64,000 nt of DNA from a virus (lineage: Duplodnaviria; Caudoviricetes), in IMG/VR virus record IMGVR_UViG_3300027710_000022, positions 1-64,000 of that record. One strand, given 5' to 3'. The notes under the pieces are model-generated. The model did no database searches. It was given only the letters and a program-made list of their open reading frames with translations, and had not been told where the DNA came from. A program made the position numbers and the translations under genes. Of the stretch, positions 4,384-53,254 are shown piece by piece. Within the stretch, counting starts at the first letter, position 1; every line of letters begins with the position of its first letter.

Positions 4384-4667
4384 TTTCTTTTTTTTTTAAT
4401 ATGATTAATTTGGTTTCTTTTGTTGATACAAAGATATAACAATTATATTAAACTTCCAAATTTATTTTAAGAAATTTATTAACCGGTCTGTTGATGGAAA
4501 GTTTATTACTGGGGAAAGTGTTGATGAGAAATCTGACGAAAAACAAAAATACGTTACTGGGATAATTCCCCAGTAAAAAGTCCGGATGGGAAGATGATGT
4601 AGAAATTCTTGGACAAAAAAAAGGGATATCATTTCTGATACCCCGATTTTCACTAACACCACAAATA

Positions 4668-7202: not shown

Positions 7203-7289
7203 ATCATTTGATTTAGAAGACAAAGATATAACAATAGTTTCATTATACAAAATATAATCGTTAATGTTTTCCTAATAGATGTGGGACCT

Positions 7290-25291: not shown

Positions 25292-25525
25292 ATTGTTATA
25301 AATAGTGTAATACAAAATAAAAATTTAAACTTTTTTAATATATCCTATCTATTATCCCAAATTAATTTTTTAATGACAAATAGTCATGTGAAATTTAACC
25401 ATTTTGGGTAACAAGTTCTTATTTATTTGTGTATGGAAAAAAATAATATAATCGATTCCAAACTTTCTTATATGGTTATTTTTCCGTATATTTTACAAAA
25501 CAATAAATTCTTAAACAAAAAACGA

Positions 25526-28500: not shown

Positions 28501-28810
28501 TTTCTCAGTTGCACAAGATGTGTTTGTTAAAATTGGAGGTAAAAGAAATTCGTTCCAAATTAGAATGGATATTCTTAACTTTACAAATATGTTGAATAAT
28601 GATTGGGGAGTTTCTCAAAGAGCAACAGCACCTCAATTGTTAAACTTTGTAAGTAGAGATGCTGTTACAAATGTACCAACATATAGATTAGCAACTCAAA
28701 GATTGACAGATGGTTCTACTATTTTAGCTAGAGATTCTTATCAATACAATTCATCAGTATTTGATGTATGGAGTGCTCAATTAGGTATCCGATATATCTT
28801 CGGTAGATAA
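25526..28810 (+). CDS. TonB-dependent receptor, Oar-like, with N-terminal carboxypeptidase-regulatory-like domain
   Basis: Signal peptide; LPGATV...G..YG..T...G.Y....RVGGPY; plug NN.TIDG...NN.FG...SLDAIEQ.QV..APFD.RQSGF.GA.INAVTRSG.N; C-terminal QLGIRYIF. Confidence 0.9.
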   Translation: MKKTILSLLLLLVVGFSGFAQVTTSTISGIVKTEKGETLPGATVQVVHVPTGTKYGASTNLSGKYVVPAVRVGGPYKVIVSFVGFNQNEQSDVNTSLGVTTNVDVVLVESSTSLKEVVVTGGGRNSTFSKERTGASQQFSRRELQAIPITGARTIDGITKYNPFGNGSSFGAQDSRLNNFTIDGSQFNNNFGLGSSAQAGGRTGASAISLDAIEQLQVNVAPFDIRQSGFVGAGINAVTRSGSNEIEGSVYQTQRDNSSRYVGDNARGTTVTASKFDEKVQGFRLGAPIIKNKLFIFGNYESIDRTEPGTTWISTGSPLTGSQVSRPTFQQLTDLSKFMKDKFNYETGPFEGYSNTNTSNKFLVRLDWNINDKNKLTTRYVFHNSEAQIGISNSQSAGFGNRTQNINAMSFQNSGYTIQDNTRSLVMELNSKFSNTLHNNLIVSYDKQIENRGYMSQMFPTIDIKEGSTTLTSVGFDPFTPGNKLDYNTFNITNNLTKYMDKHTLVGGFNFQMYQSNNLFFPASNGVYIFNSLADFYTAANQSLANGGKPSAFAPARFQFRYSALPGAIEPMQTLKSNRLDLYLQDEYNATKDLVLTFGVRANIIGFDNTALENPTITAMTFANGEKFNTGTMPKTQVLLEPRLGFNWDVKGEKKTQVRGGTGVFTGRPPYVFLSNQIGNNGVLTGFIDVSGAAAAQYGFTADPNKYFIPSTPTLPSTFDLALTDPNYKFPQVWKTNLAVDQKLPFLGLVGSVEYLYNKTINAVHYYEANLQNPVGTLGGVDNRPRFGGTDATVRVNNSVSRAAVLTTKDGAYHESLTLKLEKPVQKGFWGSIAWTTANSKDYMSAGSIASGSWQSALSVNGNNDLGLSFADAFVKNRFVGLLGYRIDYGKGLGGATTFTLGYVGQQSNPFSYIAAGDLNGDRVNNNDLIFVPNKGSDIKFASLTAGGKTFTEAEQQAAFDAFIGQDEYLSTRRGQYAERNGGLLPYLHRLDFSVAQDVFVKIGGKRNSFQIRMDILNFTNMLNNDWGVSQRATAPQLLNFVSRDAVTNVPTYRLATQRLTDGSTILARDSYQYNSSVFDVWSAQLGIRYIFGR

Positions 28811-32544: not shown

Positions 32545-33795
32545 ATGGGTAACAACAAAATTTTCATTCAAATTGCATCATATCGAGATCCGCAATTAAT
32601 ACCAACAATAAAAGACTGTATTAAAAACGCAAAAAAACCTGAAAATTTGGTTTTTTCAATTGCTTGGCAAAGGTCAAAAGAAGATGTGTGGGATAACTTA
32701 GATGAATTTTTAAATGACGAAAGATTTAAAATAATCGATATTAACTACGAAGACTCTAAAGGTGCTTGTTGGGCCAGAAATCAGTTACAACAACAATATA
32801 ATGGTGAGGAGTATACAATTCAATTAGATTCACATCATAGATTTGCGGAGAATTGGGATGATGATTGTATAAAAATGATTAAACAATTACAAAAGAAGGG
32901 ACATAAGAAACCTTTATTAACTGGTTACGTTTCATCATTTGATCCTGATAATGATCCAGCAGGTAGAATTCAAGCACCGTGGAAAATGAACTTTGACAGA
33001 TTTATTCCTGAAGGTGCAGTGTTTTTCTTACCAGCAACAATAGATGATTATCAAGAAAGAACTGAACCAGTTCCCGCTAGATTTTATTCTGCACATTTTT
33101 GTTTTACTTTAGGTTCATTTGTTAAAGAGGTTCCACATGATCCTGAATATTATTTTCACGGAGAAGAAATTTCTATTGCAGTAAGATCATATACTTGGGG
33201 TTATGATTTATTTCACCCACATAAAACAGTTGTTTGGCACGAATATACTCGTAAAGGTAGGACTAAACAATGGGATGATGATAAACAATGGGTTAGTAAA
33301 AATGTACATTGTCATAAAAGAAATAGAAAACTATTTGAAATGGATGGTGAGGTAAAAGATGTTGATTTTGGAATTTACGACTTCGGTAAAGAAAGAACTT
33401 TGGAGGATTATGAAAGATATGCCGGTATTTCATTTAAAAAGAGAGCGGTACAAAAATATACAGTTGATAATAATTTAGCACCTAACCCTCCTTTATATGG
33501 TGATGAATTTAATAATTCATTCTTATCAATTTTTAAACACTGTATAGATGTTACATTTGATAGAGTACCTGAAAATGATTATGATTTTTGGGTGGTTGCT
33601 TTTCATGATGAAAAAGACGAAACTCTTTTTAGAAAAGATGCAGATAGGGATGAAATAAAAAGATTAAAAAATGATCCTGACGGATACTGTAAAATTTGGA
33701 GGGAATTTACGGTGGAAAGTAAACCAAAATATTGGGTTGTTTGGCCACATAGCGAATCTAAAGGTTGGATGGAAAGAATAAAAGGAGATTTATAA
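32545..33795 (+). CDS. GlcNAc-transferase of the Skp1/GT60-like family
   Basis: IFIQIASYRD; GACWAR; QLDSHHRF..NWD; FYSAHF.F; YF.GEEI....R..T.G.D.F.P. Confidence 0.8.
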   Translation: MGNNKIFIQIASYRDPQLIPTIKDCIKNAKKPENLVFSIAWQRSKEDVWDNLDEFLNDERFKIIDINYEDSKGACWARNQLQQQYNGEEYTIQLDSHHRFAENWDDDCIKMIKQLQKKGHKKPLLTGYVSSFDPDNDPAGRIQAPWKMNFDRFIPEGAVFFLPATIDDYQERTEPVPARFYSAHFCFTLGSFVKEVPHDPEYYFHGEEISIAVRSYTWGYDLFHPHKTVVWHEYTRKGRTKQWDDDKQWVSKNVHCHKRNRKLFEMDGEVKDVDFGIYDFGKERTLEDYERYAGISFKKRAVQKYTVDNNLAPNPPLYGDEFNNSFLSIFKHCIDVTFDRVPENDYDFWVVAFHDEKDETLFRKDADRDEIKRLKNDPDGYCKIWREFTVESKPKYWVVWPHSESKGWMERIKGDL

Positions 33796-33803
33796 AAAGT
33801 AAT

Positions 33804-34571
33804 ATGAAAATATGTTTTGCAACCGAGGTAACATATGAAAATTATGTTAATAGAATTAAGAAAAGTTCGTTAAGTTGGTTTTTAGAAAGGGAATTAGATA
33901 AAAGAGGAATTTCATATTATATATCAACAAATTTACCAAATAATTTTAATGAATATAGTGACAATGATTCTATAAAGGTTTTTGATATTGAGGACCTAAG
34001 AAAAAATCATCCTACTTCGAAACAATATGAATTATTTCCTGAAGACCCGAGGGGGTTATATCCTTCTAGATATCCTTGGAATATGAGGAGATTCATTATT
34101 GAGAAGGCAGCACAAGATGGATATGATTATGTGATTTACATTGATGCTGATAATATGGTTATTTCACATTTAACAACTGATGATATCATCAACACATTAG
34201 TTGCAACTTACGAACCGAATGTTGTGTCAACTAACTCCGCAGTTTTTAGATACGAGGGTAGAAAACCAGATGATGTATTCCAATACCATGACAAATATAT
34301 TGAACATTTTAATTTAAACTTTAAAGACGAACAATACGACACTATAGATGGTCCCGTACAAGTTTTTATGGGAAACACAAATGAAGATATATTAAGATTT
34401 ACATCTAACTGGCATAAATTTACTGATTTTGGTTACGCACAAGAATTTGGGTTTGGTTATGGTAATAATAAACACGGTAATTTATCATTTGTAATTCCAG
34501 TTTCAAATTTTAAATTAGAATGGAAGGGGTTTCCATTTAGTCCTCATCATAGACCTGAAGATAGGTATTAA
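33804..34571 (+). CDS. Putative GT-A fold glycosyltransferase
   Basis: RRFIIEKA..DGYDYVIYIDAD (DxD). Confidence 0.55.
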   Translation: MKICFATEVTYENYVNRIKKSSLSWFLERELDKRGISYYISTNLPNNFNEYSDNDSIKVFDIEDLRKNHPTSKQYELFPEDPRGLYPSRYPWNMRRFIIEKAAQDGYDYVIYIDADNMVISHLTTDDIINTLVATYEPNVVSTNSAVFRYEGRKPDDVFQYHDKYIEHFNLNFKDEQYDTIDGPVQVFMGNTNEDILRFTSNWHKFTDFGYAQEFGFGYGNNKHGNLSFVIPVSNFKLEWKGFPFSPHHRPEDRY

Positions 34572-34596
34572 TAATTATAAAAGATTTAAATCACAT

Positions 34597-36117
34597 ATGT
34601 TTAGTATTGATGGTGTTGTATTAGCAAATAAAGGGTTTTATGTAAATTTGGATTCGTCTGTAAATCGCAAGAATCATATTGAAAATCTAATTTTAAAACA
34701 TAATATTGTTGGTTTAGAAAGATTTAGTGCGTTGAGAGATGAGTTAGTACAATCGTCATGTACCAAAAGTCATTTAGGAATTTTTAAACAGGCTTTAGAT
34801 GAGGATTTAGAAATTATATTTGTTGGTGAGGATGATTTTGACATAAAAGAATATTGCTACGCACCATATAGTGATATTCCCGTTAGTTTTAATGAGTCTA
34901 TAATGAAAATTTCAGAGGACTTAAAAAATGTAGAATGGGACGTATTATTGTTTGGGTGTAATCCAAAATCTCATTTAATTCCTGTTACGGAAAATTTAGC
35001 AAAAAACTATTTTAGTACTGGTGCATGGGCATATCTAATAAAAAAGAGAGCTTATAATTATATTTTAGAAAATTCAAATTACTATAGAGATTATATTGCA
35101 ATAGATGATTATCTTCCACTTTTAAGTAAAAAGGGGTTTGTTACTTTAACAACAATACCATTAACAATTAACCACGCAATTGGATTTGAATCCACTTTAC
35201 AACCTAGAGGTCCTGTTAATTACGATGCATGGATACAAGGTAGTTATGGTAAATTTTTATACGGGAATTATAAAGAAAAAAGTTTTAATAGTATGTCATT
35301 AGAAAAACAAACAACGGTAGTAATAACGGGTCATTATGTTGAGAATTATTTTTTTTATTTAAGTTATCTTTTACATAGTTTACCTGACGAATTATTAAAA
35401 TGTAGATTTATTGTTCATTATGATGAAGGACATGGTCACGATAGTTCGACTCAAAAAGTTAAATTAAATGCATTTTTTAGAGACTATGATAAAAACATCA
35501 ATGTAACTTTAAGTTATGGGTACGGTGGATTAATATCAAGTTTAGAATCGGTAATGGAACAAGTAACAACTCCATATTTTATATTTTTAGAACATGATTG
35601 GGTATTTTTGAAAAAAGACAATATTGATTTTCTAAATTTAATGAAGGCATTTAATAATCATGATTTTATAAATGCCGTTTGGTTTTCAAAAGATGACAAT
35701 ACAATGAGAGGTTTTGATATTGCTAGAGATATCGATGATGTAACAACTCCTTTTGGTAAGGAGGATAGAGTAAGTGAGGTTAATTTAGTAACAACTTGTA
35801 GATGGTCAAATAATCCTGTTATGTTCAGATTGAGTAAATTAAAAGAATGGTATTATAACATAATTAAAAATGAATACGTTGGTGTCGTTCATCAGGCTCA
35901 ACAAAATATTGAAGAAACAATGATACCTCATTATAGGGATATAATTAGTAAAAATAAATGGTTAGATATTAGAGATAATTGGGGAACCTTTTTATATGGT
36001 GCATTAAATGAAGGTCCGTATGTTGGTCACACTGACGCATCAAAAAGATACCAAGGTATTGCAAAATCAGGTCCAGAATATAATGGTGAGGAATATATAA
36101 AAAATAACCCATTATAG
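34597..36117 (+). CDS. Two-domain glycosyltransferase (GT25-like plus GT2-like)
   Basis: FYVNLD...RK...CTKSHL.I...GEDD; second domain TPY.IFLEHDW...WSNNP. Confidence 0.7.
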   Translation: MFSIDGVVLANKGFYVNLDSSVNRKNHIENLILKHNIVGLERFSALRDELVQSSCTKSHLGIFKQALDEDLEIIFVGEDDFDIKEYCYAPYSDIPVSFNESIMKISEDLKNVEWDVLLFGCNPKSHLIPVTENLAKNYFSTGAWAYLIKKRAYNYILENSNYYRDYIAIDDYLPLLSKKGFVTLTTIPLTINHAIGFESTLQPRGPVNYDAWIQGSYGKFLYGNYKEKSFNSMSLEKQTTVVITGHYVENYFFYLSYLLHSLPDELLKCRFIVHYDEGHGHDSSTQKVKLNAFFRDYDKNINVTLSYGYGGLISSLESVMEQVTTPYFIFLEHDWVFLKKDNIDFLNLMKAFNNHDFINAVWFSKDDNTMRGFDIARDIDDVTTPFGKEDRVSEVNLVTTCRWSNNPVMFRLSKLKEWYYNIIKNEYVGVVHQAQQNIEETMIPHYRDIISKNKWLDIRDNWGTFLYGALNEGPYVGHTDASKRYQGIAKSGPEYNGEEYIKNNPL

Positions 36118-36118
36118 A

Positions 36119-36739
36119 ATGAAGATTAATCTTTTTACCGGATGGTATTATGTACCTAAAAATCCTATAAGGGAGGACGAGTTTAATTTTTGTTATGAAA
36201 AAAATAAAAAACTAAACTTTGGTGAGTATTATATTGATAGAACTCAAAGACCGACTTATAATTCATTTTTAAACGAAATGAAAAAATATCCAAATGATAT
36301 TAACATAATAGCAAATCCTGATAATTTTTTTGACGAGAAATTTTTAAATGATGTATATGAACTATACTCCAAATATGAAAACAAAGAAAAATTGTGTTTA
36401 GGGTTAACAAGATGGAACTATATCAATGAGGGAGATGTAAGATATTTTAATGCCAAGGACTCACAAGATATTTTTATATTTTACGGTTCAGTAGATTTAA
36501 ACGTTGGCGAACAAATACCTTTAGGTAGACCCGGATGTGATAATAGATTGGCGGCAATATTAATAAATGATTTAAAAATGGATGTCTTTAACCCAAGTTT
36601 AGATTTAAAATATTATCATTATCACCCATCTGACGATTCAACAAGAACCTATTTAAATGAAAAATTAGAAAGGACTGAATTTGTTATGGGACCTCATGAA
36701 TTTATATATTCATGTAGATTAAATGATGTTAAAAAATAA
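36119..36739 (+). CDS. Glycosylation-cluster protein, putative glycosyltransferase
   Basis: IIANPDNFFD, SQD..IF, LGRPGCDNR.A...NPS. Confidence 0.5.
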   Translation: MKINLFTGWYYVPKNPIREDEFNFCYEKNKKLNFGEYYIDRTQRPTYNSFLNEMKKYPNDINIIANPDNFFDEKFLNDVYELYSKYENKEKLCLGLTRWNYINEGDVRYFNAKDSQDIFIFYGSVDLNVGEQIPLGRPGCDNRLAAILINDLKMDVFNPSLDLKYYHYHPSDDSTRTYLNEKLERTEFVMGPHEFIYSCRLNDVKK

Positions 36740-39089
36740 AATTATGGAAATTGTTAATAAGATATTGTCATTTGACAATAAAAAAATAGATGGTAGTATA
36801 ATAAATGATGAACAAATAAAAAATTTAGTTTTTTATTTGTTAGACTCAATTGATAATAATGTCGACGGAGATGTTGTTGAATTTGGATGTTATGTTGGTG
36901 AGTCCAGCAAATATCTAATGAAAACTTTACTAGAAACAAATTCAAGTAAAAAACTTTTTGTTTATGATTCTTTTGAGGGTCTTCCTCCATTATCTAAATG
37001 GGAGGAAAATACAGGATGGAGAGCAGGGACGTTAAAAAGTACCGAAGAAATACTAATATCAAATTTTGAACAAAACAATTTACCAACACCAATCATCCAT
37101 AAGGATTGGTTTAAGGATGTCCCTGAAGATAAAATACCTGAGAAAATATCCTTTGCATTTTTAGACGGGGATTTTTACGATTCAATTTATGATAGTTTAA
37201 ATAAAGTTTTTGATAAAGTTACTGATGGAGGTTACATATGTTTTCACGATTATCAAAGAAATGATTTACCGGGTGTTCGTGCGGCAATAGAGGATGTTTT
37301 TAAAGAAAAAGGTGTTGATTATACCGTAGAGGAAGTTTGTGGTCAATTAGGAATTTACAGAAAAAATAGTACCATTGAAAATAGAATACCCCAAAGACCA
37401 ACTAGTGAAGTTAATTATGGTGGGACAACAATCGTTACAGGTATTTGGGACATTAAAAGAGAAGAACTTACCGAAGGGTGGAGTAGAAAATTTGACCATT
37501 ATTTAAATCATCTTTCTAATTTAATGAAGACAGATGATAACATGATAATTTATATTGAGGAGAAGTATAGGTCATTTGTTGAGGACCATAGACCCAAAGA
37601 AAACACATTAATAATTGTTAGGGAGTTGGAATGGTTTAAGAAGAGTGAATTTTTTAACAAAATTCAAAAAATAAGAAATGATTCTAATTGGTCCAACACT
37701 TCTGGTTGGTTACCTGAAAGTACGCAAGCAAAATTGGAAATGTATAATCCAATTGTTATGTCGAAGGTATTTCTTTTAAATGACGCATCAATAATGGATC
37801 CGTTCAATTCATCACATTTAGTTTGGGTGGATGGTGCAATTACAAATACTGTACATGAAGGATATTTTTGGAAAGATGGGGTAATTAAAAACGTTTCTAA
37901 ATTTTTTAATAAATTCTCATTTGTTTGTTTTCCTTATGACGGAAAAGTTGAAATACATGGATTTAAGTATAATGAAATGTGTATCTATTCTGAGGATGAG
38001 GTAAACAAAGTTGCAAGAGGAGGTATATTCGGGGGTCCAAAACATTTAATAAGTAAAATCAACGAAATATATTATTCATTATTAAACGATACCCTATCTA
38101 ACGGTTTAATGGGTACGGAAGAGAGTATATTTACAATCATCACATACAAATATCCTGAACTAGTTCAGTATTTTGAAATTGAACAGAATGGATTGTTGGG
38201 TTTGTTTTTTGAAAATTTAAAAAATGGTAATTTAATTCCGAGACAAGAAAAAAGTGAAACGATAAAAATAAATCCTCATAGTAAAGAAAATATTGCACTT
38301 TACGTAATGACGTATAATTCACCAAGTCAGTTTGAAAAATTATGTATGTCGTTTGAAATGTATGATAGAAATTTTTTAGATAGACCTAAGAAATTTTTAT
38401 TAAATAATTCAATAGATTCGGATACAGATTTAACATATTCAAATCTTTGTGAAAAATATGGATTTACTGAAATTAAAAAAGGTAATTTAGGTATTTGTGG
38501 TGGTAGACAATTCATATCAGAACATGCTGATGAGAATAATTTTGATTACCATATGTTTTTTGAGGATGATATGTTTTTTTATTTAGGTGATGATGAGTTT
38601 TGTAGAAATGGATTTAGAAGAAAAATAAAGGACTTCTATAATGTCATGTTAGATATCATATGGAACGAAAACTTTGATTTTTTAAAATGGAATTTTAGTG
38701 AGTTCTTTGGTGATAATACAAGACAGTGGTCTTGGCATAATGTACCTGGCGATACAAGAGCTCGGTTATTCCCTGAAAAACCTGTTAAAATAAATAATGA
38801 CCACAACTACGCTCCCTATTTAAATTTTAAAAACATTAAGTCATATAAATCGGTACCGTACGCATCGGGAGAGATATATTATTGTAATTGGCCACAAATA
38901 GTCTCAAAAGAAGGAAATAGAAAAATGTTTATAGATACAAAGTTTGCCAATCCATTTGAGCAAACGTGGATGTCTTTTATATATCAAGAAACATTAGAAG
39001 GTAAGATTAAACCGGGAATATTATTAGCAACACCAACGGAACACGATAGGTTCGAATTTTATCCAAGAGAGGACAGGAGAGAAAATTAA
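36723..39089 (+). CDS. Fusion: TylF/MycF O-methyltransferase + HtrL/WlaTC-like glycosyltransferase + GT2-like domain
   Basis: GDVVEFGCYVG, YDSFEGLP, FAFLDGDFYDS; TTIVTGIWDI.R...W.RKF..YL; C-terminal FFEDD. Confidence 0.75.
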   Translation: MMLKNKIMEIVNKILSFDNKKIDGSIINDEQIKNLVFYLLDSIDNNVDGDVVEFGCYVGESSKYLMKTLLETNSSKKLFVYDSFEGLPPLSKWEENTGWRAGTLKSTEEILISNFEQNNLPTPIIHKDWFKDVPEDKIPEKISFAFLDGDFYDSIYDSLNKVFDKVTDGGYICFHDYQRNDLPGVRAAIEDVFKEKGVDYTVEEVCGQLGIYRKNSTIENRIPQRPTSEVNYGGTTIVTGIWDIKREELTEGWSRKFDHYLNHLSNLMKTDDNMIIYIEEKYRSFVEDHRPKENTLIIVRELEWFKKSEFFNKIQKIRNDSNWSNTSGWLPESTQAKLEMYNPIVMSKVFLLNDASIMDPFNSSHLVWVDGAITNTVHEGYFWKDGVIKNVSKFFNKFSFVCFPYDGKVEIHGFKYNEMCIYSEDEVNKVARGGIFGGPKHLISKINEIYYSLLNDTLSNGLMGTEESIFTIITYKYPELVQYFEIEQNGLLGLFFENLKNGNLIPRQEKSETIKINPHSKENIALYVMTYNSPSQFEKLCMSFEMYDRNFLDRPKKFLLNNSIDSDTDLTYSNLCEKYGFTEIKKGNLGICGGRQFISEHADENNFDYHMFFEDDMFFYLGDDEFCRNGFRRKIKDFYNVMLDIIWNENFDFLKWNFSEFFGDNTRQWSWHNVPGDTRARLFPEKPVKINNDHNYAPYLNFKNIKSYKSVPYASGEIYYCNWPQIVSKEGNRKMFIDTKFANPFEQTWMSFIYQETLEGKIKPGILLATPTEHDRFEFYPREDRREN

Positions 39090-45395: not shown

Positions 45396-45805
45396 TGGTG
45401 GAGGTGACGGGACTCGAACCCGTGTCTTTCCTGTTCAACAATAAATGACTACACGTTTATTCAATTAGTTCACAACTGACAAATATTTGGTTCCTATTTT
45501 GACATCGTTACCAACAACTGTGTCGAGTTCACTTTTGTTACGGTAGTCCTCTGAACGAGACCGTTTGTTTCTTTTTGGGTAGAAACCACACCTTAAGTAC
45601 TTCTGTTCCTAGGTTATATGTACGTCGACCCGATTGTAGTTTCGCCTTAGGCTACTGCTACGTTAGAAGTTGCAAGAATACCTGCTACTTCCATGTTGTT
45701 GTAAACGTTGCCGTCTAAAATTTTCCACCGTAGATTTAAGTCATAGATGAAGTCTGACTACGTGCCACTTACCCCTGATACCTGAAATCAATGCCAGGCA
45801 CCCCC
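45396..45805 (-). ncRNA. ssrA: tmRNA
   Basis: Acceptor stem GGGGGUG/CACCUCC with G3-U70, A73 and encoded CCA; T-arm GGUUCGAGUCC; internal tag ORF 45712-45647 encodes GNVYNNMEVAGILATSNVAVA*. Confidence 0.92.
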
Positions 45806-46228: not shown

Positions 46229-46918
46229 CTAAAATCGATTAACCCTTAAAGGGAAGTGTTTCTCATATAATGCTTCAAAAAACAACTTATTTTTCTCCCA
46301 TTGTTTATTAGTCATACCAATAGATTTGTGTGTTACCATTATTTTAGTGGTAACCCCAACTTTAATTCCATCTAAATGGTTGTCAACACAAAATGGTAAA
46401 TCATAAAAATGAAACCCTGTAAATTCTTCATTAAACTTATGTTTAATTCTACCTTTATGAACCATAATAAACAATCCATCAACAATTACCACTTCTTTTG
46501 GTTTGTCACCAAATGATTGTTTTGAATAGTGATTTACATGTCTTTTACCTTCATGTTCATGACCCACAACACCATACATAGATTCTCTATCTTGCCACCA
46601 CATTCCACTCATTAAGTTATCAGTACCTGCCAATCCTAAAATTCCATATTCAGGATTTTCTTCAAAAAGTCTAACAACTTTTGGTGTAATGTTGGAAGTT
46701 TCTAAAATAAGATCATCATGCATAAACACAACAATATCATGTTCAGAATCTTGTAATCCTGTGTTATATATTTTAGGTAGAGAATCCACACCATCATTCT
46801 CATAAATTAATATTTGAGTTTTAGGGTGTGAAAACATTTTCTCAACGTGTTTTAAATAGACATCATCAATTTTACGTGTTGAGATGACGACACTTATTGG
46901 TTCATTATATTTCGACAT
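46229..46918 (-). CDS. GT2-like glycosyltransferase (Glyco_tranf_2_5 type)
   Basis: IYN.G......DIVVFMHDD; G.LGLAG; V.IVDGLFI; FHFYD..FC. Confidence 0.75.
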   Translation of the reverse strand: MSKYNEPISVVISTRKIDDVYLKHVEKMFSHPKTQILIYENDGVDSLPKIYNTGLQDSEHDIVVFMHDDLILETSNITPKVVRLFEENPEYGILGLAGTDNLMSGMWWQDRESMYGVVGHEHEGKRHVNHYSKQSFGDKPKEVVIVDGLFIMVHKGRIKHKFNEEFTGFHFYDLPFCVDNHLDGIKVGVTTKIMVTHKSIGMTNKQWEKNKLFFEALYEKHFPLRVNRF

Positions 46919-47654
46919 GTGTTGCGATTATTTCACCATAAACTTCTTGAAGGTCTATGATTATTGGTTTATTAATTGGACTATATCCAGGATTACATAT
47001 TGACGCATTTACAAATAATGTTTTATTACCGATCTCAACACCGTAACCTTCGTGAATATGACCAAATACACTTACTAATGGATTTATTTCTTCTATTCTA
47101 TTTCGTAACAACTCACAACCAACATTCGTATTTGGTTGTCGCCAATTATTAACTAAATCTCCATATCCATTTGGTGGTCCGTGTGTAATTAACACGTCGG
47201 TATCGGTTGGGATGTTATTCCATTTTTCTAACAACTCTTCACCCATTCTCGGTAAATTAAAAGCCCAATCATAAAACCATGGTTGCCAAGGACTACCATA
47301 AAATTTAATAGGTCTTGAAAATTCATCACTTTCAATTGTTATAAAACTATCCTCTAAATAAGTTACATCAGATTGAGATAAATTTTCGGGTGACATTAAA
47401 TTATGTAACCAATCATAATCACCTTTATGGTGAGGTTGATTAACTCTTTCAAAACAATGGTCGTGATTACCTGATATGAATATTTTTTCATCAAATCCTT
47501 TAATGTTTTGAAACCAATGAATAAATTCGGTAACATCCCTTTCTCCACCTCGATTAGAAATATCACCCGCATGTATTAGCACATCACCAGATGGTATTTC
47601 GTGGGCCATACCACTATGTAAACTATGTGTGTCAGATATACAAACGATTCTCAT
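46905..47654 (-). CDS. Calcineurin-like metallophosphoesterase
   Basis: ISDTH, HAGD, GNHD, THGPP, GHIHE. Confidence 0.9.
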   Translation of the reverse strand: MRIVCISDTHSLHSGMAHEIPSGDVLIHAGDISNRGGERDVTEFIHWFQNIKGFDEKIFISGNHDHCFERVNQPHHKGDYDWLHNLMSPENLSQSDVTYLEDSFITIESDEFSRPIKFYGSPWQPWFYDWAFNLPRMGEELLEKWNNIPTDTDVLITHGPPNGYGDLVNNWRQPNTNVGCELLRNRIEEINPLVSVFGHIHEGYGVEIGNKTLFVNASICNPGYSPINKPIIIDLQEVYGEIIATHVEI

Positions 47655-47722
47655 AATATCAAATATAAGTAAAATTTATTAAAATGCATAAAAAAAGTCA
47701 GAATAAATCTGACTAATTTTTT

Positions 47723-48589
47723 TTGGGCCGAACGGTTTTAAAACGTTCCAATTCCACCACTTTGTTTTACTAAACAAAGAAAAAAAACACTGAGAATACA
47801 TGTTTTAACAATTGACTTGGGGACATTATTTGATTCTTCCCTTTTCCACTACCTTTTGAGTAGTACCAATCAGCGGCGGTCAATTAGATTAACCAATCCT
47901 TAAGTCGTTATATACTCTTTTAATACTCATTACTCATCAAAGATGCCTCCCTGATTCAACCTTGCGGGTTTAGAGAACTTTTTTAAAAATCACATTGGGC
48001 TTGAGACCCTTTGTGGCCGTGAACCCCTCACGACTATGTAGCCACCTGTCTACAACGACTGACGAACACTTTTTCTTGTATGATTTTAAGTTGTTAAACC
48101 AAAATTAACAAAATTTAGTTTCCGAATTTGGGAAAGTAGTGGTTCGTCGACCAGCCAAGCCACCTTTTGAGCGACTCGATACTAAACTACTCTCTGTAAC
48201 ATCCCTGCTACCATATTTTTGGACCCCTTCAAAACTAAACTCTTGGTAGAGTTTAATAAAGGATGATAACGACACCACTCGTACTTCACCATACCTTTCG
48301 GTTTTAAGATTCCCATCATATTGAATCACGCAATTGTAAAGTCGGATAACGATACTTCTCACAATAACTCTATGGATTATTCTTATTGGTGTTCCCACCT
48401 CAACCAAACAACTCGGATTGCTTGGTCGTCAAACCACTTTCCCTAAAGTGTTACCCTCAGTACTTAAGGTTTAACGATACTCCACTTGCCTACTCGAGAT
48501 CCATTACTGAATCCGCAACTCACCCCAACCAAGGGTTTGTCACTTTATCCCACTTTCATGGTTTATTTTAATCGACCATAGGCGGCCAA
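47723..48589 (-). ncRNA. Large (~870 nt) structured non-coding RNA, GOLLD-like candidate
   Basis: No credible ORF; GC-richer than flanks; 5' UUGGCCG can pair with 3' CGGCCCAA; many hairpins; own promoter (48627-48634) and boxA-like element; next to a phage tRNA array. Confidence 0.6.
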
Positions 48590-48599
48590 TATTTTTAAA

Positions 48600-48657
48600 T
48601 CAAAGAACTATTTCTTGTTTCTTTTACAAAGATAAGAAAACTTTTTTAAAAAACAAA
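48600..48657 (-). promoter_or_regulatory. Host-type promoter plus boxA-like element
   Basis: TTTG-N19-TATCTTTG, then AGTTCTTTGA at 48600-48609. Confidence 0.7.
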
Positions 48658-48664
48658 ATATTTT

Positions 48665-48898
48665 TTAATTATTTTCTACTTTATTTTTTTTCAATGTTTT
48701 TTTAGAAGATACTTTCTCAGTTGTCTTCTTTGTCTTGTACTCAGGATTTTTATAAAGTTTATATTCGGTCTTTGGTGCAAATGACCAATAACCACCCTTA
48801 ACTCTTAAATCCGCTTCATTGTCATCTACTCTCAGTACCTCACCAATTTCATGACCCTTACTTGCTTTAATTAATTTAATACATTTCATATTTTCCAT
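48665..48898 (-). CDS. Small basic hypothetical protein
   Basis: 77-aa ORF. Confidence 0.6.
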   Translation of the reverse strand: MENMKCIKLIKASKGHEIGEVLRVDDNEADLRVKGGYWSFAPKTEYKLYKNPEYKTKKTTEKVSSKKTLKKNKVENN

Positions 48899-48939
48899 GT
48901 TTATAATAAAATATAAGAAATAAAAACCATAAAAAAAAA

Positions 48940-49767
48940 TTAAAGTACATTTCTTTTAAATTCCTTATTAACTAAATTTGGTTCATCGTCATAACCAAAG
49001 AAGATACATTCTTTTTTAAACATTTCACATACGGTCAAATACTCATTAAGTGTAATTTCATCATAATAGTAATTCGGATTTTTTGAATGGTGATATCCTG
49101 ACAAAGAATCCTTAAAATAGGTATAGAAAACCATAAATGAATTATTCATACCGTTTGGAAAATCTTTTAAAAAATAAAATGGTTTTATATAGGGTTTATT
49201 TAATATGCCAAAATTTTTTAAATTACTTTCACTTAATAAATTGTTATTAATTTTTACAATATCATTAATATCCTCTATTCTAAAAAATCTATAATTATAA
49301 TTTTCAAAACGTTTATCATATTCTTTTCTAAAATTAAAATTTAAATTTGATATAATTTCATTACCCAATGGGTCATTTAGAAAAAAAGAACTTTGTGGTA
49401 AAAAATGAGTATCATTTGAACTTTCAATAAAAGAGTTATATTTTTGAATAAATTTTGATAAGGAGTCTATCTCAAGATCCTCAAATGTTTTTAACGACTC
49501 TTCTGTTCGTTCTAACTCTTTTTTTGTTAGTTTATTTAACATATTAAGGTCATATAATCTTTTCAACTTTACATACCAATCGTATGACGAAAAAAATCTA
49601 TCGATAGGGTTTCTTATAAATAAGAAACAATTTTTTTCTAATTCTTCATTAACAAAATTAAACTCGATTGAATTTAATTGTAATATATCTGATAAAGTTG
49701 AGTAAATTATTGTATTTCCAGATTTATGGGGGATAATAAAACTTGTATTATATTCAGGTACATTCAT
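48940..49767 (-). CDS. Sulfotransferase family 2-like protein
   Basis: IIPHKSGNT (5'-PSB-like), FIRNPIDRFFSSY (3'-PB-like), HFLPQS. Confidence 0.65.
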   Translation of the reverse strand: MNVPEYNTSFIIPHKSGNTIIYSTLSDILQLNSIEFNFVNEELEKNCFLFIRNPIDRFFSSYDWYVKLKRLYDLNMLNKLTKKELERTEESLKTFEDLEIDSLSKFIQKYNSFIESSNDTHFLPQSSFFLNDPLGNEIISNLNFNFRKEYDKRFENYNYRFFRIEDINDIVKINNNLLSESNLKNFGILNKPYIKPFYFLKDFPNGMNNSFMVFYTYFKDSLSGYHHSKNPNYYYDEITLNEYLTVCEMFKKECIFFGYDDEPNLVNKEFKRNVL

Positions 49768-49810
49768 ATGTGTATTATAAATACCATTAGGTTAACAAGA
49801 ACAATTTTTG

Positions 49811-49961
49811 CTGTAGTGGGTGGGTTCGAACCACCAAGTGGAGATTCAACCGATAACATGACGCTTGCAAGCTGGTGGTCTACCCCCTAATATTATCAAT
49901 CTGTTTCTTTGTCCACACCCCCGAGACAGGAGGGTACGTTTGCCAATTTCGTCACACTACA
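49811..49961 (-). ncRNA. 151-nt tRNA-like RNA with a greatly expanded variable region
   Basis: Acceptor UGUAGUG/CACUACA, D-arm, stem CCCUC/GGGGG with loop CUGUCUC, T-arm GGUGG UUCGAAC CCACC; about 80-nt structured insert closed by GUGGA/UCCAC. Confidence 0.7.
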
Positions 49962-50154
49962 ATATAACACCCTTTTATCAGCCGAAGCCTCACATAACCT
50001 TAGTGTGGAACCACAGGTAGGTGTCATGAATGATTACCACTGAGAATGTAGATTTTCACTAACTCGATTTAGCGGTCTCTATGGTAATTTTTTTGATGGA
50101 TGAAAAACATCTATTTTTCTTGCGGATTTCCATCGGAATCCCATAATTTAAAAG

Positions 50155-50228
50155 TGGACCAGATAGGAATCGAACCTATTACCTTCACATTATGAGTGTG
50201 CCGCTCTAACCGAGTGAGCTACAAGTCC
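50155..50228 (-). tRNA. tRNA with CAT anticodon (probably Ile2, otherwise elongator Met)
   Basis: GGACTTGTAGCTCACTCGGTTAGAGC...CTCATAA...GGTTCGATTCC cloverleaf. Confidence 0.85.
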
Positions 50229-50299
50229 AATTAATAGGTGGGGCTTAATTATTTAACTCTTTACCACCATTAAGTCTTTAATGCTTTAGACACCTATCG

Positions 50300-50373
50300 T
50301 GATCCCGTTTGGATTCGAACCAAAGACCCACATCTTAGAAGGATGTTGCTCTATCCAACTGAGCTACGGAACC
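50300..50373 (-). tRNA. tRNA-Arg(TCT)
   Basis: Anticodon arm ACATC CTTCTAA GATGT. Confidence 0.95.
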
Positions 50374-50489
50374 AAAGTAATGTAATGTCTGTACGGTTTG
50401 TATCTAATCCACACCTTTGTACGTGTTTCAAAAGTTTCCATTTCATACGTAGCGTCTGTTCCGTCACTTATTTCTAAGTCATTACATTG

Positions 50490-50574
50490 TACCTGGGGCG
50501 GGACTTGAACCCGCACGGGACTTTCGCCCCAACAGATTTTAAGTCTGTCATGTATACCATTTCATCACCCAGGC
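50490..50574 (-). tRNA. tRNA-Leu(TAA)
   Basis: Loop CTTAAAA, long variable arm. Confidence 0.95.
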
Positions 50575-50592
50575 ATTTGTTTTTCCAATACA

Positions 50593-50640
50593 TCAAAGAA
50601 CTATAATCAAATATAAGAATAAAAAATGATATAAAAAAAC
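50593..50640 (-). promoter_or_regulatory. Host-type -7 promoter box plus boxA-like element
   Basis: TATATTTG at 50608-50615, then AGTTCTTTGA at 50593-50602. Confidence 0.65.
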
Positions 50641-50691
50641 CCCGAACATTTTTTTTAGTTTGTTCGGGGGAATTAACTGAACTAAAAATGT

Positions 50692-51141
50692 TTATTTTAC
50701 TTTATACGATAACCCAAGTCCTAATGTAAAATCACTACCAACTAAATTACCGATAGTCCATAAATTTATGACATTACTTGGTCTAAGTGGATTGTACATT
50801 ATAAGAAAATTTGGTTTATTACCATTAATTGTTGGTTGTAACCCAAATCCAATAATTGCTTTGTCCTCTTTTAATTCTCTAAGAACACCAAACTTCATAT
50901 TATCAGATAAAGTTCCTGTATTGGTGTTGACACCAGGAGGAAGTGTTATTCCACCATTTTGGCTTTTCAATTCACCATATGGAAGACCTGCATAAAACCC
51001 CCAACCTTTTTTCATAAAACCACCTGTTATATAACCATCTGATGGGCCACCTTTTCGAGTGGCGGTTATAAACCACTCTTGCCCATTTGCCACGACTTCT
51101 ACTCCCAAAAGTAACGTTAGCACTAAAAAAATTTTTTTCAT
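50692..51141 (-). CDS. Exported small beta-barrel-like outer-membrane protein
   Basis: Signal peptide, alternating aromatic strands, C-terminal LGLGLSYKVK. Confidence 0.55.
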   Translation of the reverse strand: MKKIFLVLTLLLGVEVVANGQEWFITATRKGGPSDGYITGGFMKKGWGFYAGLPYGELKSQNGGITLPPGVNTNTGTLSDNMKFGVLRELKEDKAIIGFGLQPTINGNKPNFLIMYNPLRPSNVINLWTIGNLVGSDFTLGLGLSYKVK

Positions 51142-51440
51142 TTTTTTGATTTGGACAAGGAGTCTTCCGTTGCCCATTTTTCTTTTAACTTTGCTACCTT
51201 CTCAATCTTTACAATTTTACCATTCAATTTGGTAATCTCGTCCGCGATTTCTTTGGTTTTGACGGCCCTGCTAGCGAAATTTTCATCTGTTACTTCAACC
51301 CATTCAATTTTTCTTTCCAGAGATTTAATCTCTTTCTTTATTTGATTGACTGACTTTCTTTCGTCTGAAAGACTTGGGTCGATAGATGATGTTAATGTAT
51401 TAAAAAATAGCATTAACGATAGTGTGATTTTATCTATCAT
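51138..51440 (-). CDS. Exported or anchored coiled-coil protein
   Basis: Hydrophobic N-terminus followed by heptad repeats. Confidence 0.6.
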   Translation of the reverse strand: MIDKITLSLMLFFNTLTSSIDPSLSDERKSVNQIKKEIKSLERKIEWVEVTDENFASRAVKTKEIADEITKLNGKIVKIEKVAKLKEKWATEDSLSKSKK

Positions 51441-51518
51441 ATATTATAAATATTAATAATATGATAAATATACAGAATAAAATATTGTAAATCAATATCT
51501 TAATATAAAAAAATTTTG

Positions 51519-51590
51519 TACTCGGTACGGGATTCGAACCCGTGCAACCACCGTGAAAGGGTGGTGACCTAACCACTAGTCGAACCGAGC
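51519..51590 (-). tRNA. tRNA-Glu(TTC)
   Basis: CCACC CTTTCAC GGTGG. Confidence 0.95.
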
Positions 51591-51826
51591 AAGTAATCAC
51601 TCAAATGGGTATTTGTTATAATATCACAATTGTTGCACTATACTTTGGTTAATTACTCCGTCTGTATCCAACAGCTTTATGTTGGCTTATAATTGGCTAC
51701 TTTATTATAACTCACATTTTTATTTGTGATTAATTAAGAACTAACATTGCTATCAGGGTTTAAATGGTTCACAGATAAATCCGGAATCACCACCTACCGA
51801 TTTTACGGTATCTTAGTTAATTCTTG

Positions 51827-51911
51827 CAGAGAGTTAGGGATTCGAACCCCAGATACCTTTCAGTATGCCAGTTTTCAAGACTGGTGCCATCAACCACTCG
51901 GCCAACTCTCT
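51827..51911 (-). tRNA. tRNA-Ser(TGA)
   Basis: CCAGT CTTGAAA ACTGG, long variable arm, G73. Confidence 0.95.
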
Positions 51912-51998
51912 AAAATTGATTCTAACTCACCTTAAGTTGCACCATCCGAGTCACTGCTCTGGTTGACAAAGTCCTCGTTGAGTTAGTCTCAAAAAGTT

Positions 51999-52208
51999 AC
52001 AGGTTTTTCGTACCATCTATGTACATCATGACCGAAGTTTGGTTGGATTTACATCACGTCTCAGCAAACTTTACTCGGTGGTTACATTTTCGTATTGGGG
52101 TAATTATTCCCGACTTATAGTAACTCTACCCTCACCGCCCTACCTCGCGAGTCAGACGGATCTTTTGGGATTCATAGACAGTGGGGTTACACCACCGTCG
52201 TCACCTGT
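51999..52208 (-). ncRNA. Candidate ~210-nt multibranch structured RNA between tRNAs
   Basis: Closed by ACAGGU/ACCUGU; internal GACGGUGG/CCACUGUC, UCUAUG/CAUAGA, CGGUG..GUUAC/GUAAC.CACCG, GUUUG/CAAAC. Confidence 0.5.
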
Positions 52209-52210
52209 TG

Positions 52211-52284
52211 AGCCCAAACTCAGATTCGAACTGAGGACCTACTGATTACAAATCAGTTGCTCTGGCCAGCTGAGCTATTCGGGC
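52211..52284 (-). tRNA. tRNA-Thr(TGT)
   Basis: ACTGA TTTGTAA TCAGT. Confidence 0.95.
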
Positions 52285-52418
52285 TACTATGGAAAACAGA
52301 AGATGGGGGTGTGGACATCTGTTTTTATGATTGGCGTTTCTCGCTATTCGCTAGCCCCGTTAAATCCCAATCAACCATTTGTTTTACAAAGATAAAAAAT
52401 AATTTTAGATATTCCAAA

Positions 52419-53216
52419 TTATTTATTATCTTTTATATATTTTTTTAATATTTCAAATTCATTTTTAACAAATTCGGGGTCATAACTTCCCATATCTTTT
52501 ATTATATATGGTTCATATCCCATTTTTTTAATCTCATTAATTTTAATATTGTCACGATTTTTAACTTGTTTAAGTGAATGTTTTTTAGTTATTTTTTCAT
52601 AATGCCATTTACCATTCCACATAATTGCTAATTTATAGTCATTAATTATTACATCGGCATCCCATCCATTAAACATATTTTCATTAGATAAAACATCGTT
52701 ATATTCTTTTTTACAAAGTTCAAATAATAAAATTTCATTTTTACTTCTTTTACCTTGTTTTGATTTTTTACCACCCGCAGATCCCGAGCATTTGTATGAA
52801 CAAAATCTTCCTTTTAAATTTTCTTTACGTTCAAAATGTTTACCACAGTTATCACATCTACGTATTGTATATTTTATTTCTTTTTTGGGTCTCGGAGGTT
52901 TGTTTTTTAACGAAACAGATATTTTAATTCTTGTTTCTTCATTAAAATCTCTACTATTTGAACATTTATAAGAACAATGTTTTGGGTAATCCCCTATTGA
53001 AAATATATGTTCAGTTACATTTATTTTATATTCTTTATCACATTTTACACAATTTAATATCTTTTCATTTTTAATTTGGTTTTTTGTAATTAACGATTTT
53101 TCAATCATTAATTTTTTATTTGGGTTCATAGAACAATTAGTCACGTGAGCTCCTGCTTGTTGTTTCTTTTCAAAAACAAACGTTTCATTACAAAACTTAC
53201 ATTTATATTCCATCAT
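52419..53216 (-). CDS. Homing-endonuclease-like protein (Zn-finger repeats plus Vsr/DUF559-like nuclease) inside the tRNA array
   Basis: CKFC, HCSYKCS, FCSYKCS; SKNE...WDADVII...AIMWNGKWHY...RD..K. Confidence 0.7.
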   Translation of the reverse strand: MMEYKCKFCNETFVFEKKQQAGAHVTNCSMNPNKKLMIEKSLITKNQIKNEKILNCVKCDKEYKINVTEHIFSIGDYPKHCSYKCSNSRDFNEETRIKISVSLKNKPPRPKKEIKYTIRRCDNCGKHFERKENLKGRFCSYKCSGSAGGKKSKQGKRSKNEILLFELCKKEYNDVLSNENMFNGWDADVIINDYKLAIMWNGKWHYEKITKKHSLKQVKNRDNIKINEIKKMGYEPYIIKDMGSYDPEFVKNEFEILKKYIKDNK

Positions 53217-53254
53217 ACTCATTAATATAATTAATAAATATGACAAAATCAAAG

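Follow-up and report, generated by a model that had tools for sequence, protein, structure and literature searches.

The transfer RNA (tRNA) region of bacteriophage T4 gives rise to two stable, late-accumulating RNAs, RNA C and RNA D, whose role is unknown (PMC3014915; PMC9697503). Their genes stand in series, tRNA-Arg being followed after 1 nucleotide (nt) by rnaD (119 nt) and, 6 nt further on, by rnaC (139 nt), and the homing endonuclease gene segB lies inside the same cluster. Here we describe genes of this kind, that is, non-tRNA RNA genes that abut a tRNA on the tRNA strand of a phage cluster, in a 64,000-nt stretch of DNA from a large uncultured freshwater phage (Caudoviricetes; positions 1 to 64,000 of IMG/VR record IMGVR_UViG_3300027710_000022; this whole stretch is called the window below). 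Two tRNA operons on the minus strand, to which the features of the array located below belong, also hold about ten separate small structured RNA genes, 47 to 210 nt in length. The geometry is that of T4, with non-tRNA RNAs in series on the tRNA strand and abutting a tRNA, and rnaC has a T arm and paired ends, as has one unit of the window, module c. Whereas T4 has two such RNAs that end one subcluster, the window has about ten modules of at least nine families, which are interleaved with the tRNAs and shuffled between phages. The modules have no sequence similarity to the T4 RNAs; an nhmmer search of the T4 tRNA region with nine module profiles gave no match at E values up to 10, and the host group differs, as judged by promoters of Bacteroidota type. 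A first-pass annotation of the window, made from the sequence alone, had called these RNAs undescribed. As far as Rfam 15 and the searched literature go, this stands for the families, their number (about ten in the window and about 80 clusters among relatives) and their exchange as cassettes, and fails for the arrangement, which T4 already has as rnaD plus rnaC.

Several other systems invite comparison. In Escherichia coli, the functional RNA 3'ETS-leuZ is freed from the glyW-cysT-leuZ tRNA precursor at maturation (PMC8383071). It is a short, largely unstructured trailer that acts as a base-pairing sponge for RyhB and RybB; the modules, unlike it, have compact multi-helix folds, invariant junctions and no known pairing target. 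In mitochondrial tRNA punctuation, in the tRNA-microRNA units of murid herpesvirus 68 and at MALAT1-mascRNA, an RNA has its ends defined by RNase P or RNase Z, which a neighbouring tRNA or tRNA-like fold attracts. These cases are eukaryotic or organellar, and they yield messenger RNAs, microRNAs or the ends of long noncoding RNAs, not the compact noncoding RNAs (ncRNAs) of a bacterial virus. The Y RNAs YrlA and YrlB, which go with Ro60/Rsr, are stem-closed and about 100 nt long, some have tRNA-like domains cleaved by RNase P, and some occur in phages (PMC4201824). We rejected them as an identity for the modules: YrlA (RF02553) was found neither in the spacers of the window nor in a 316-kilobase (kb) relative, which also has no TROVE domain, and the closing stems, read by eye, show no GNCGAA motif. 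None of the 28 open reading frames (ORFs) of the window that were scanned encodes TROVE/Ro60, though the host may encode a Ro60. Finally, GOLLD and ROOL are phage-associated structured RNAs that often lie beside tRNAs and are possibly co-transcribed with them (PMC5737381). They are several hundred nt long and stand alone, whereas the modules are 47-210 nt long, lie between tRNAs and match neither; a GOLLD gene does lie 1.6 kb from the array and is present in all nine relatives whose fetched locus extends that far.

Structured modules among the tRNAs

The first tRNA group (52284-51518) consists of tRNA-Thr (UGU; 52210-52284, without an encoded CCA), tRNA-Ser (UGA; 51826-51911) and tRNA-Glu (UUC; 51518-51590, followed by a U run), and the second (50574-50154, plus 390 nt 3' of tRNA-Met) of tRNA-Leu (UAA; 50489-50574), tRNA-Arg (UCU; 50299-50373) and tRNA-Met (CAU; 50154-50228). 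The stretches that are not tRNA were numbered S1 (52285-52418), S2 (51912-52209), S3 (51591-51825), S4 (50374-50488), S5 (50229-50298) and S6 (49768-50153). When each was searched separately with blastn, S2 resolved into S2ab and S2c, S3 into a widespread S3a and a rare S3b, and S6 into four units, a (50092-50153), b (50030-50091), c1 (49966-50029) and c (49807-49965). The first-pass annotation had listed nine stem pairs as closing such units; checked against the sequence, all nine are exact, lie on the minus strand and fall within the ranges given for them. A tenth, missing from its list, closes the Arg-Met spacer (AUAGGUG, 50297-50291, with CACCUAU, 50240-50234). Compensatory or G-U changes were seen among relatives in seven of the nine.

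The closing stem of S4 (P1; AAUGUAAUG, 50488-50480, with CAUUACAUU, 50387-50379) bounds a 110-nt, four-helix RNA (50379-50488), whose other helices are a hairpin (P2), an inner stem (P3) and a variable hairpin (P4), joined by strands that are invariant. Across 38 distinct sequences (alignment A2), 99.5% of the cells are paired and nine pairs have changed on both sides; none of 500 column shuffles reached the observed values, and slid controls gave 25-39% pairing. The G-U pairs in S4 fit the tRNA strand only, which places the module RNAs on that strand. Variable, covarying stems around invariant junctions are also the typical architecture of small ribozymes, and some modules, such as S4 and the pseudoknotted module a, might be self-cleaving or otherwise catalytic RNAs that cut the transcript where a tRNA is lacking, as it is at the a/b and b/c1 junctions, which have no tRNA to direct processing. 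We consider this very unlikely: the isolated modules matched no Rfam ribozyme at E values up to 10 (hammerhead, twister, twister-sister, pistol, hatchet and HDV-like families among them), and no cleavage site could be deduced.

Module a (50095-50141) is a pseudoknot of about 47 nt, in which GAUGGA (50134-50129), within the loop of the first hairpin, pairs with a 3' UCCAUC (50100-50095), the second hairpin being nested between them; this pair, listed at first among the closing stems, is one arm of the pseudoknot and not a simple outer stem. In 17 sequences (alignment A3), 95% of cells are paired and six pairs have changed on both sides. Module b (50033-50088, about 56 nt) is closed by AUUACCA (50088-50082) and UGGUAAU (50039-50033) around a 36-nt invariant core; its nine aligned sequences (A4) are 100% paired, and three closing-stem pairs have changes on both sides. 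S2c (51922-51986, about 65 nt), closed by CUAACUCA (51986-51979) and UGAGUUAG (51929-51922), has both-side changes in 8 of 19 predicted pairs among 14 sequences (A5). S2ab (51999-52208) is a multi-branch RNA of about 210 nt with nine distinct homologues, closed by ACAGGU (52208-52203) and ACCUGU (52004-51999); the closing stem reads ACAAGU/ACUUGU in one relative (L079), several of the hairpins covary, and one hairpin of the window copy is enlarged by an insertion of about 30 nt.

Module c (49807-49965), the last unit in the chain a-b-c1-c and just outside the range first noted, is a tRNA-Asp-like RNA with an acceptor stem of 7 base pairs (bp), a D arm, a T arm, an invariant loop CUGUCUC (GUC, with U37) and a variable region enlarged by an insert of about 80 nt. 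It is represented by 61 distinct sequences on 86 IMG/VR contigs, and the acceptor, D, insert and T helices covary. Some copies have an additional hairpin in the D loop. The window is without a canonical tRNA-Asp; relatives have one, between S2c and tRNA-Ser, plus module c.

The remaining modules are known from fewer variants. S1 (52285-52380), which ends 1 nt before tRNA-Thr, has two hairpins, UGAUUGG (52373-52367) with CCAAUCA (52334-52328) and then ACAGAUG...CAUCUUCUGU, the second of which also occurs alone at other loci. Positions 52290-52377 are 93-100% identical in six distinct relatives, and the sole variation in the first stem, which lies in the operon's 5' leader and not between tRNAs, is one G-U pair. 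Module c1 (49966-50025, about 60 nt; six distinct sequences) is closed by GACACC (50025-50020) and GGUGUU (49971-49966), with one compensatory and one G-U change in this stem. S3a (51736-51825, 90 nt) is closed by AAGAAUUAAC (51825-51816) and GUUAGUUCUU (51745-51736); its alignment (A6) is 96% identical and of low diversity, and the closing stem and an inner hairpin each have one compensatory change (C-G to U-A in the hairpin). None of the few variants of c1, S3a and S1 breaks a stem. By eye alone, S3a (CCAUUUAAAC..UGAUAGC) was likened to the GTPase-associated centre of 23S ribosomal RNA; we make no claim of this. S3b (51592-51735) is an accessory AT-rich insert that was found only in L016/L064 and L050, at 94-97% identity; in most relatives S3a is followed directly by tRNA-Glu. 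Its 3' part (51592-51657) is closed by AGUAAUUA (51657-51650) and UGAUUACU (51599-51592), and this fold stays a prediction, as the homologues are all near-identical and covariation is uninformative. S5 (50229-50298), closed by the tenth stem, is a 70-nt accessory module with 96% identity in two relatives (L077, L112). The Arg-Met gap that it fills is only 9 nt long in most other relatives; in three (L007:5207-5258, L014:7857-7907 and L016:5087-5138) it holds a spacer that has no relation to S5, is 51-52 nt long and is likewise closed by a stem (UAUCGUUG...AAACGAUA).

Could such stems be chance inverted repeats in AT-rich intergenic DNA? Folding of whole spacers would allow it, the z-scores of the three long spacers against shuffles being +0.07, -1.63 and -0.50, none significant, and 13% of shuffled spacers have a 7-bp closing helix. 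Folding z-scores are uninformative for spacers that hold several modules, and the structural support comes from comparison, not from thermodynamics: the idea is countered by conservation, by covariation and by the modular placement flush with tRNAs. It is refuted for S4, a, b, S2c and S2ab and survives only for the AGUAAUUA/UGAUUACU stem of S3b. As a general account it is scarcely credible. The first-pass annotation had named stems that are not conserved in relatives, together with degradation of the spacers, as grounds for abandoning its proposal, and had suggested homologue collection with covariation, together with an Rfam scan, as checks. The stems proved to be conserved, with covariation in the five modules just named, and no Rfam 15 family matches the modules.

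The Rfam search, in which the region as a whole and isolated modules were both run at E values up to 10, returned noise only (plastid untranslated regions, small nucleolar RNAs, and sX4 over a tRNA). At gathering scores, the window gave only transfer-messenger RNA (tmRNA), GOLLD and tRNAs, as did 13 relatives among the best 150 of 223 matches. The tRNA model (RF00005) matched no spacer at E values up to 10, and ARAGORN called only the six flanking tRNAs. In GenBank phages (INPHARED), a distant blastn search with the whole 2.8-kb region matched the tRNA parts alone, which indicates that there is no cultured relative. Nor do the modules have a common handle, such as a stem or a motif of YACAGC type: a survey of 6-mers in 80 spacer clusters found no shared motif. 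ACAGAC recurs in S4 and S3b, and the most clearly enriched 6-mers were TATCTT (promoters) and GGTTCG (T loops).

Placement, exchange and conservation

The relatives are IMG/VR contigs of up to 333 kb, from which loci were collected through the 161-amino-acid protein encoded in the array (21 loci), the module c motif (86), the S4 motif (44) and an exact pattern of the module b core (27). A profile hidden Markov model of each unit was searched on all fetched loci and the hits were compared with ARAGORN tRNA calls. In all of its 45 distinct contexts, S4 touches a tRNA on at least one side. It starts at most 3 nt from a tRNA 3' end in 40 of them (Leu 33, Ala 3, Ser 3, Glu 1) and ends at most 12 nt before the next tRNA in 34 (Arg 21, Ala 11, Thr 1, Asp 1). 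Since the S4 motif scan covered the whole viral collection, this flush placement is not due to the picking of loci. The other modules are placed likewise: S3a directly follows tRNA-Ser (0-1 nt) in 13 of 13 contexts, the 5' part of S2ab lies 0-2 nt after a tRNA in 14 of 20, S2c ends at most 12 nt from tRNA-Asp or tRNA-Ser in 14 of 20, module a touches a tRNA in 25 of 28, and S1 ends at most 12 nt from tRNA-Thr in 8 of 11. Module c1 (14 contexts) is almost always directly 3' of b.

When each spacer was compared among relatives by blastn, the spacers were found to be conserved but mosaic, and modules are swapped between phages as cassettes. In L011, tRNA-Thr, unit a, tRNA-Gly, unit b and tRNA-Gln follow one another, each unit filling its gap exactly; in L015 and L017, S2c was found far from S2ab. 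The first-pass annotation had supposed that the phage uses tRNAs as punctuation. In relatives, a and b are each bracketed by tRNAs; in the window itself no tRNA separates a, b and c1, and such punctuation could not by itself part them.

The pattern extends beyond the modules of the window. Across all loci, 510 unique inter-tRNA spacers have a bimodal length distribution, with 116 below 10 nt, few of 10-40 nt and 364 of at least 40 nt. The long spacers (at least 40 nt) fall into about 80 similarity clusters (147 loci), and a helix of at least 7 bp joins the two ends of the spacer in 47% of them against 13% of dinucleotide shuffles (59 clusters, one representative each). One spacer family that is not in the window has 70 members in related loci, where it occupies the gaps of several tRNA pairs, Arg>Leu, Leu>Glu, Gln>Ser and Cys>His among them; about 75 further clusters are smaller.

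Stem closure that is so general among the long spacers of these phages, with closing stems that adjoin tRNA ends by 1-2 nt, would also be expected of parts of the precursor that act in cis, as insulators or as presenters of tRNA ends to RNase P and RNase Z, and that are degraded after processing without any function in trans. The variable presence of modules among close relatives, from which it follows that no single one is essential, fits such a role as well. Most tRNA pairs in the same arrays, however, have no need of an insulator, being separated by only 1-10 nt, and one and the same module serves different tRNA neighbours. Long invariant unpaired stretches (36 nt in b, and the S4 junctions over 38 sequences) are likewise not required of an insulator, and we therefore regard a purely cis-acting role as unlikely.

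Each module is its own conserved family, under purifying selection on helices and unpaired strands alike. The modules are 91-98% identical to those of ten relatives, whereas the codons of an adjacent ORF agree at 91-97% of first and second positions and at 80-86% of third positions; in L011, S4, a and b are 92-94% identical while the flanking tRNAs reach only 75-81%. S4 is single-copy in the 95%-complete, 316-kb relative, the one relative whose full record was searched. In 185,579 species genomes, its pattern had six matches, all attributable to chance (about four expected) and without flanking S4 sequence or tRNAs, so that, at this pattern stringency, cellular genomes give no indication of S4. 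Taken together, the conservation, the single copy and the chance-only cellular matches argue against relic DNA or a repeated mobile element.

We thus disfavour, as highly improbable, the view that the modules are selfish or decayed DNA, whether miniature inverted repeats, footprints of homing endonucleases or eroded tRNA genes. It would account for their cassette-like presence and absence, for the HNH endonuclease gene in the array and for the T-loop-like GGTTCG in seven spacer clusters against 1.4 expected. Yet the stems go on pairing while their sequence shifts, with G-U pairs that suit one strand only, which is unlike terminal repeats bound by a transposase; no spacer matches a tRNA model, and conservation of the modules exceeds that of synonymous sites. 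The single S4 copy and the covariation of the stems also speak against miniature inverted-repeat or other repeated mobile DNA.

Transcription and proposed release

A composite promoter motif, TTTG followed after 20 nt by TATCTTTG, lies at 52387-52418, upstream of the Thr-Ser-Glu operon. The motif TTTG-N17-21-TATCTTTG has five copies in the window against 0.26 expected (307-338, 4429-4460, 7221-7251, 48627-48657 and 52387-52418), all on the minus strand. We take it to resemble the Bacteroidota -33/-7 consensus, and together with a gene for a CarboxypepD_reg-plus-outer-membrane-barrel protein (25427-28810) it hints at a host in the phylum Bacteroidota. The copy at 52387-52418 lies directly upstream of the conserved part of S1, which makes S1 the 5' leader of the Thr operon. 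For the Leu-Arg-Met operon, a candidate -7 box, TATATTTG (50608-50615), was picked by position only, its match being at chance level. Between the two tRNA groups lie two protein genes (51440-50692) and, 3' of these, a strong intrinsic terminator read from the sequence (CCCCGAACA...UGUUCGGGG plus seven U; 50670-50633); neither operon has an internal terminator. Overall, the proposal that the spacers are discrete, conserved, structured non-tRNA RNAs, flush with tRNA ends on the tRNA strand and behind shared promoters, is upheld by these comparisons.

Four studies (lake, freshwater, estuary) each contributed one metatranscriptome run whose assembled contigs match the array at 90% identity or above, over positions 49965-50144, 50089-50376, 50379-50578, 51633-51806, 51916-52021, 52031-52130 and 52165-52335. 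Some, as over 50379-50578 and 50089-50376, join modules to adjoining tRNAs, and S3b is covered as well. In the searched stretch, the two array ORFs have a summed depth of 0-5 against about 3-560 in bins of modules and tRNAs, and the tmRNA and GOLLD bins reach 10^2 to 10^5; the runs were picked for containing this stretch, bin depth is not an expression level and uncovered parts do not signify absence. The modules are present in RNA libraries, with the ORFs as an internal control, and stable species are not thereby proven.

None of the six tRNAs has an encoded CCA. The discriminator is followed by C and then mostly by AA (CAA in four, CGA in one and CUU in one), so that encoding of CCA seems to stop at its first C. 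After tRNA-Thr, -Ser, -Leu and -Arg, the closing stem of the next module begins 1-2 nt 3' of the discriminator, and stems end 1-10 nt before the next tRNA.

Our preferred reading, with the T4 RNAs as precedent, is that the modules are small structured RNAs that probably share a transcript with the tRNAs and are cut free when tRNA ends are processed, as RNA C and RNA D are as far as is known. Transcription with the tRNAs from shared promoters is moderately supported. Given that the closing stem follows the discriminator so closely and that no CCA is encoded, maturation of the upstream tRNA, by 3' trimming or an RNase Z-type cut, would at the same time make the 5' end of the module. RNase P, acting at the next tRNA, would leave its 3' end 1-10 nt beyond the stem, and by the same geometry the near-blunt closing helix may protect the freed RNA from exonucleases. 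Module c, being tRNA-like with a 7-bp acceptor stem, could provide an RNase P site after c1. The invariant unpaired cores would then suggest a job in trans, most likely the binding of a host or phage protein or RNA.

Several observations weigh against this account, beginning with the folding z-scores given above. S3a, S3b, S5, S1 and c1 have little diversity, and their folds rest on few changes. The cover of the modules consists of assembled contigs, which show neither RNA ends nor sizes, from runs chosen for containing the stretch, and its depth is weak evidence. As no tRNA separates a, b and c1, one has to assume either that a further nuclease acts there or that the three form one joint RNA of about 190 nt. 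No partner protein was found in the window and no RNA-related neighbour among the scanned proteins, which comprised glycosyltransferases, a sulfotransferase-like protein, a metallophosphoesterase, an HNH endonuclease, an outer-membrane barrel protein, a lipase and a lysin. Release by these enzymes and the steps after it are deduced from the geometry and from the T4 precedent.

The wider RNA island and its possible meaning

The array belongs to an RNA-gene island on the minus strand of the window that comprises tmRNA (45396-45805, from the Rfam gathering-score scan), GOLLD RNA (RF02032; 47787-48194, 309.6 bits) and 12 tRNAs. The Rfam match covers GOLLD at 47787-48194 only; one of the promoter copies, with a spacing of 19 nt (TTTG-N19-TATCTTTG), lies at 48627-48657, and the deepest metatranscriptome cover of the whole stretch (up to 10^5) is at 48311-48611. 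A start near 48620 is probable for the GOLLD RNA, with a length of about 850 nt. Between two tRNA blocks, like segB of T4, lies a free-standing HNH endonuclease gene (52419-53252; phrog_1271, E 1.5e-10), which several relatives lack there. The two protein genes between the tRNA groups (50692-51440) encode a coiled-coil-like protein of 100 amino acids and one of 161 amino acids with a signal-peptide-like N-terminus; they are conserved in 21 IMG/VR loci, and neither belongs convincingly to a Pfam or PHROG family. Genes for glycosyltransferases, methyltransferases and sulfotransferase-like proteins (32545-39089 and 46229-49767) flank the island, a cluster that suggests phage-encoded modification of surface glycans.

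The decoy, antitoxin-mimic and guide-like functions that the first-pass annotation offered for the modules are speculation. One broader reading, which we advance only tentatively and consider doubtful at present, is that the tRNA operons of these freshwater jumbo phages store dozens of RNA cassettes that bind proteins and can be exchanged as a library. The tRNA-processing enzymes of the host would produce them in bulk, and they would serve as factors of host takeover or anti-defence. They would be, for example, decoys or inhibitors of tRNA-targeting nucleases, of tRNA-modifying enzymes or of RNA-sensing immunity. If this is true, the tRNA array would be the RNA counterpart of an anti-defence gene island, and the class of T4 RNA C and RNA D would gain a function. 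To our knowledge, those two RNAs have been known for about fifty years and are still without one.

In conclusion, T4-like RNAs of this class are not an oddity of T4: they recur in a widespread group of uncultured freshwater jumbo phages, in which most long gaps between tRNAs are conserved, exchangeable and covarying RNA genes that Rfam lacks. Several of the families are compact (47-210 nt); S4, whose four-helix fold is well supported, is sampled by 38 distinct sequences and module c by 61, and the families are suited to structure probing, pull-downs and ribozyme or aptamer tests. For annotation, the finding is a caution, in that arrays counted as tRNA genes alone conceal a second layer of RNA genes. 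Should the modules prove to act in trans, tRNA operons would be a general platform for the expression of phage ncRNAs.

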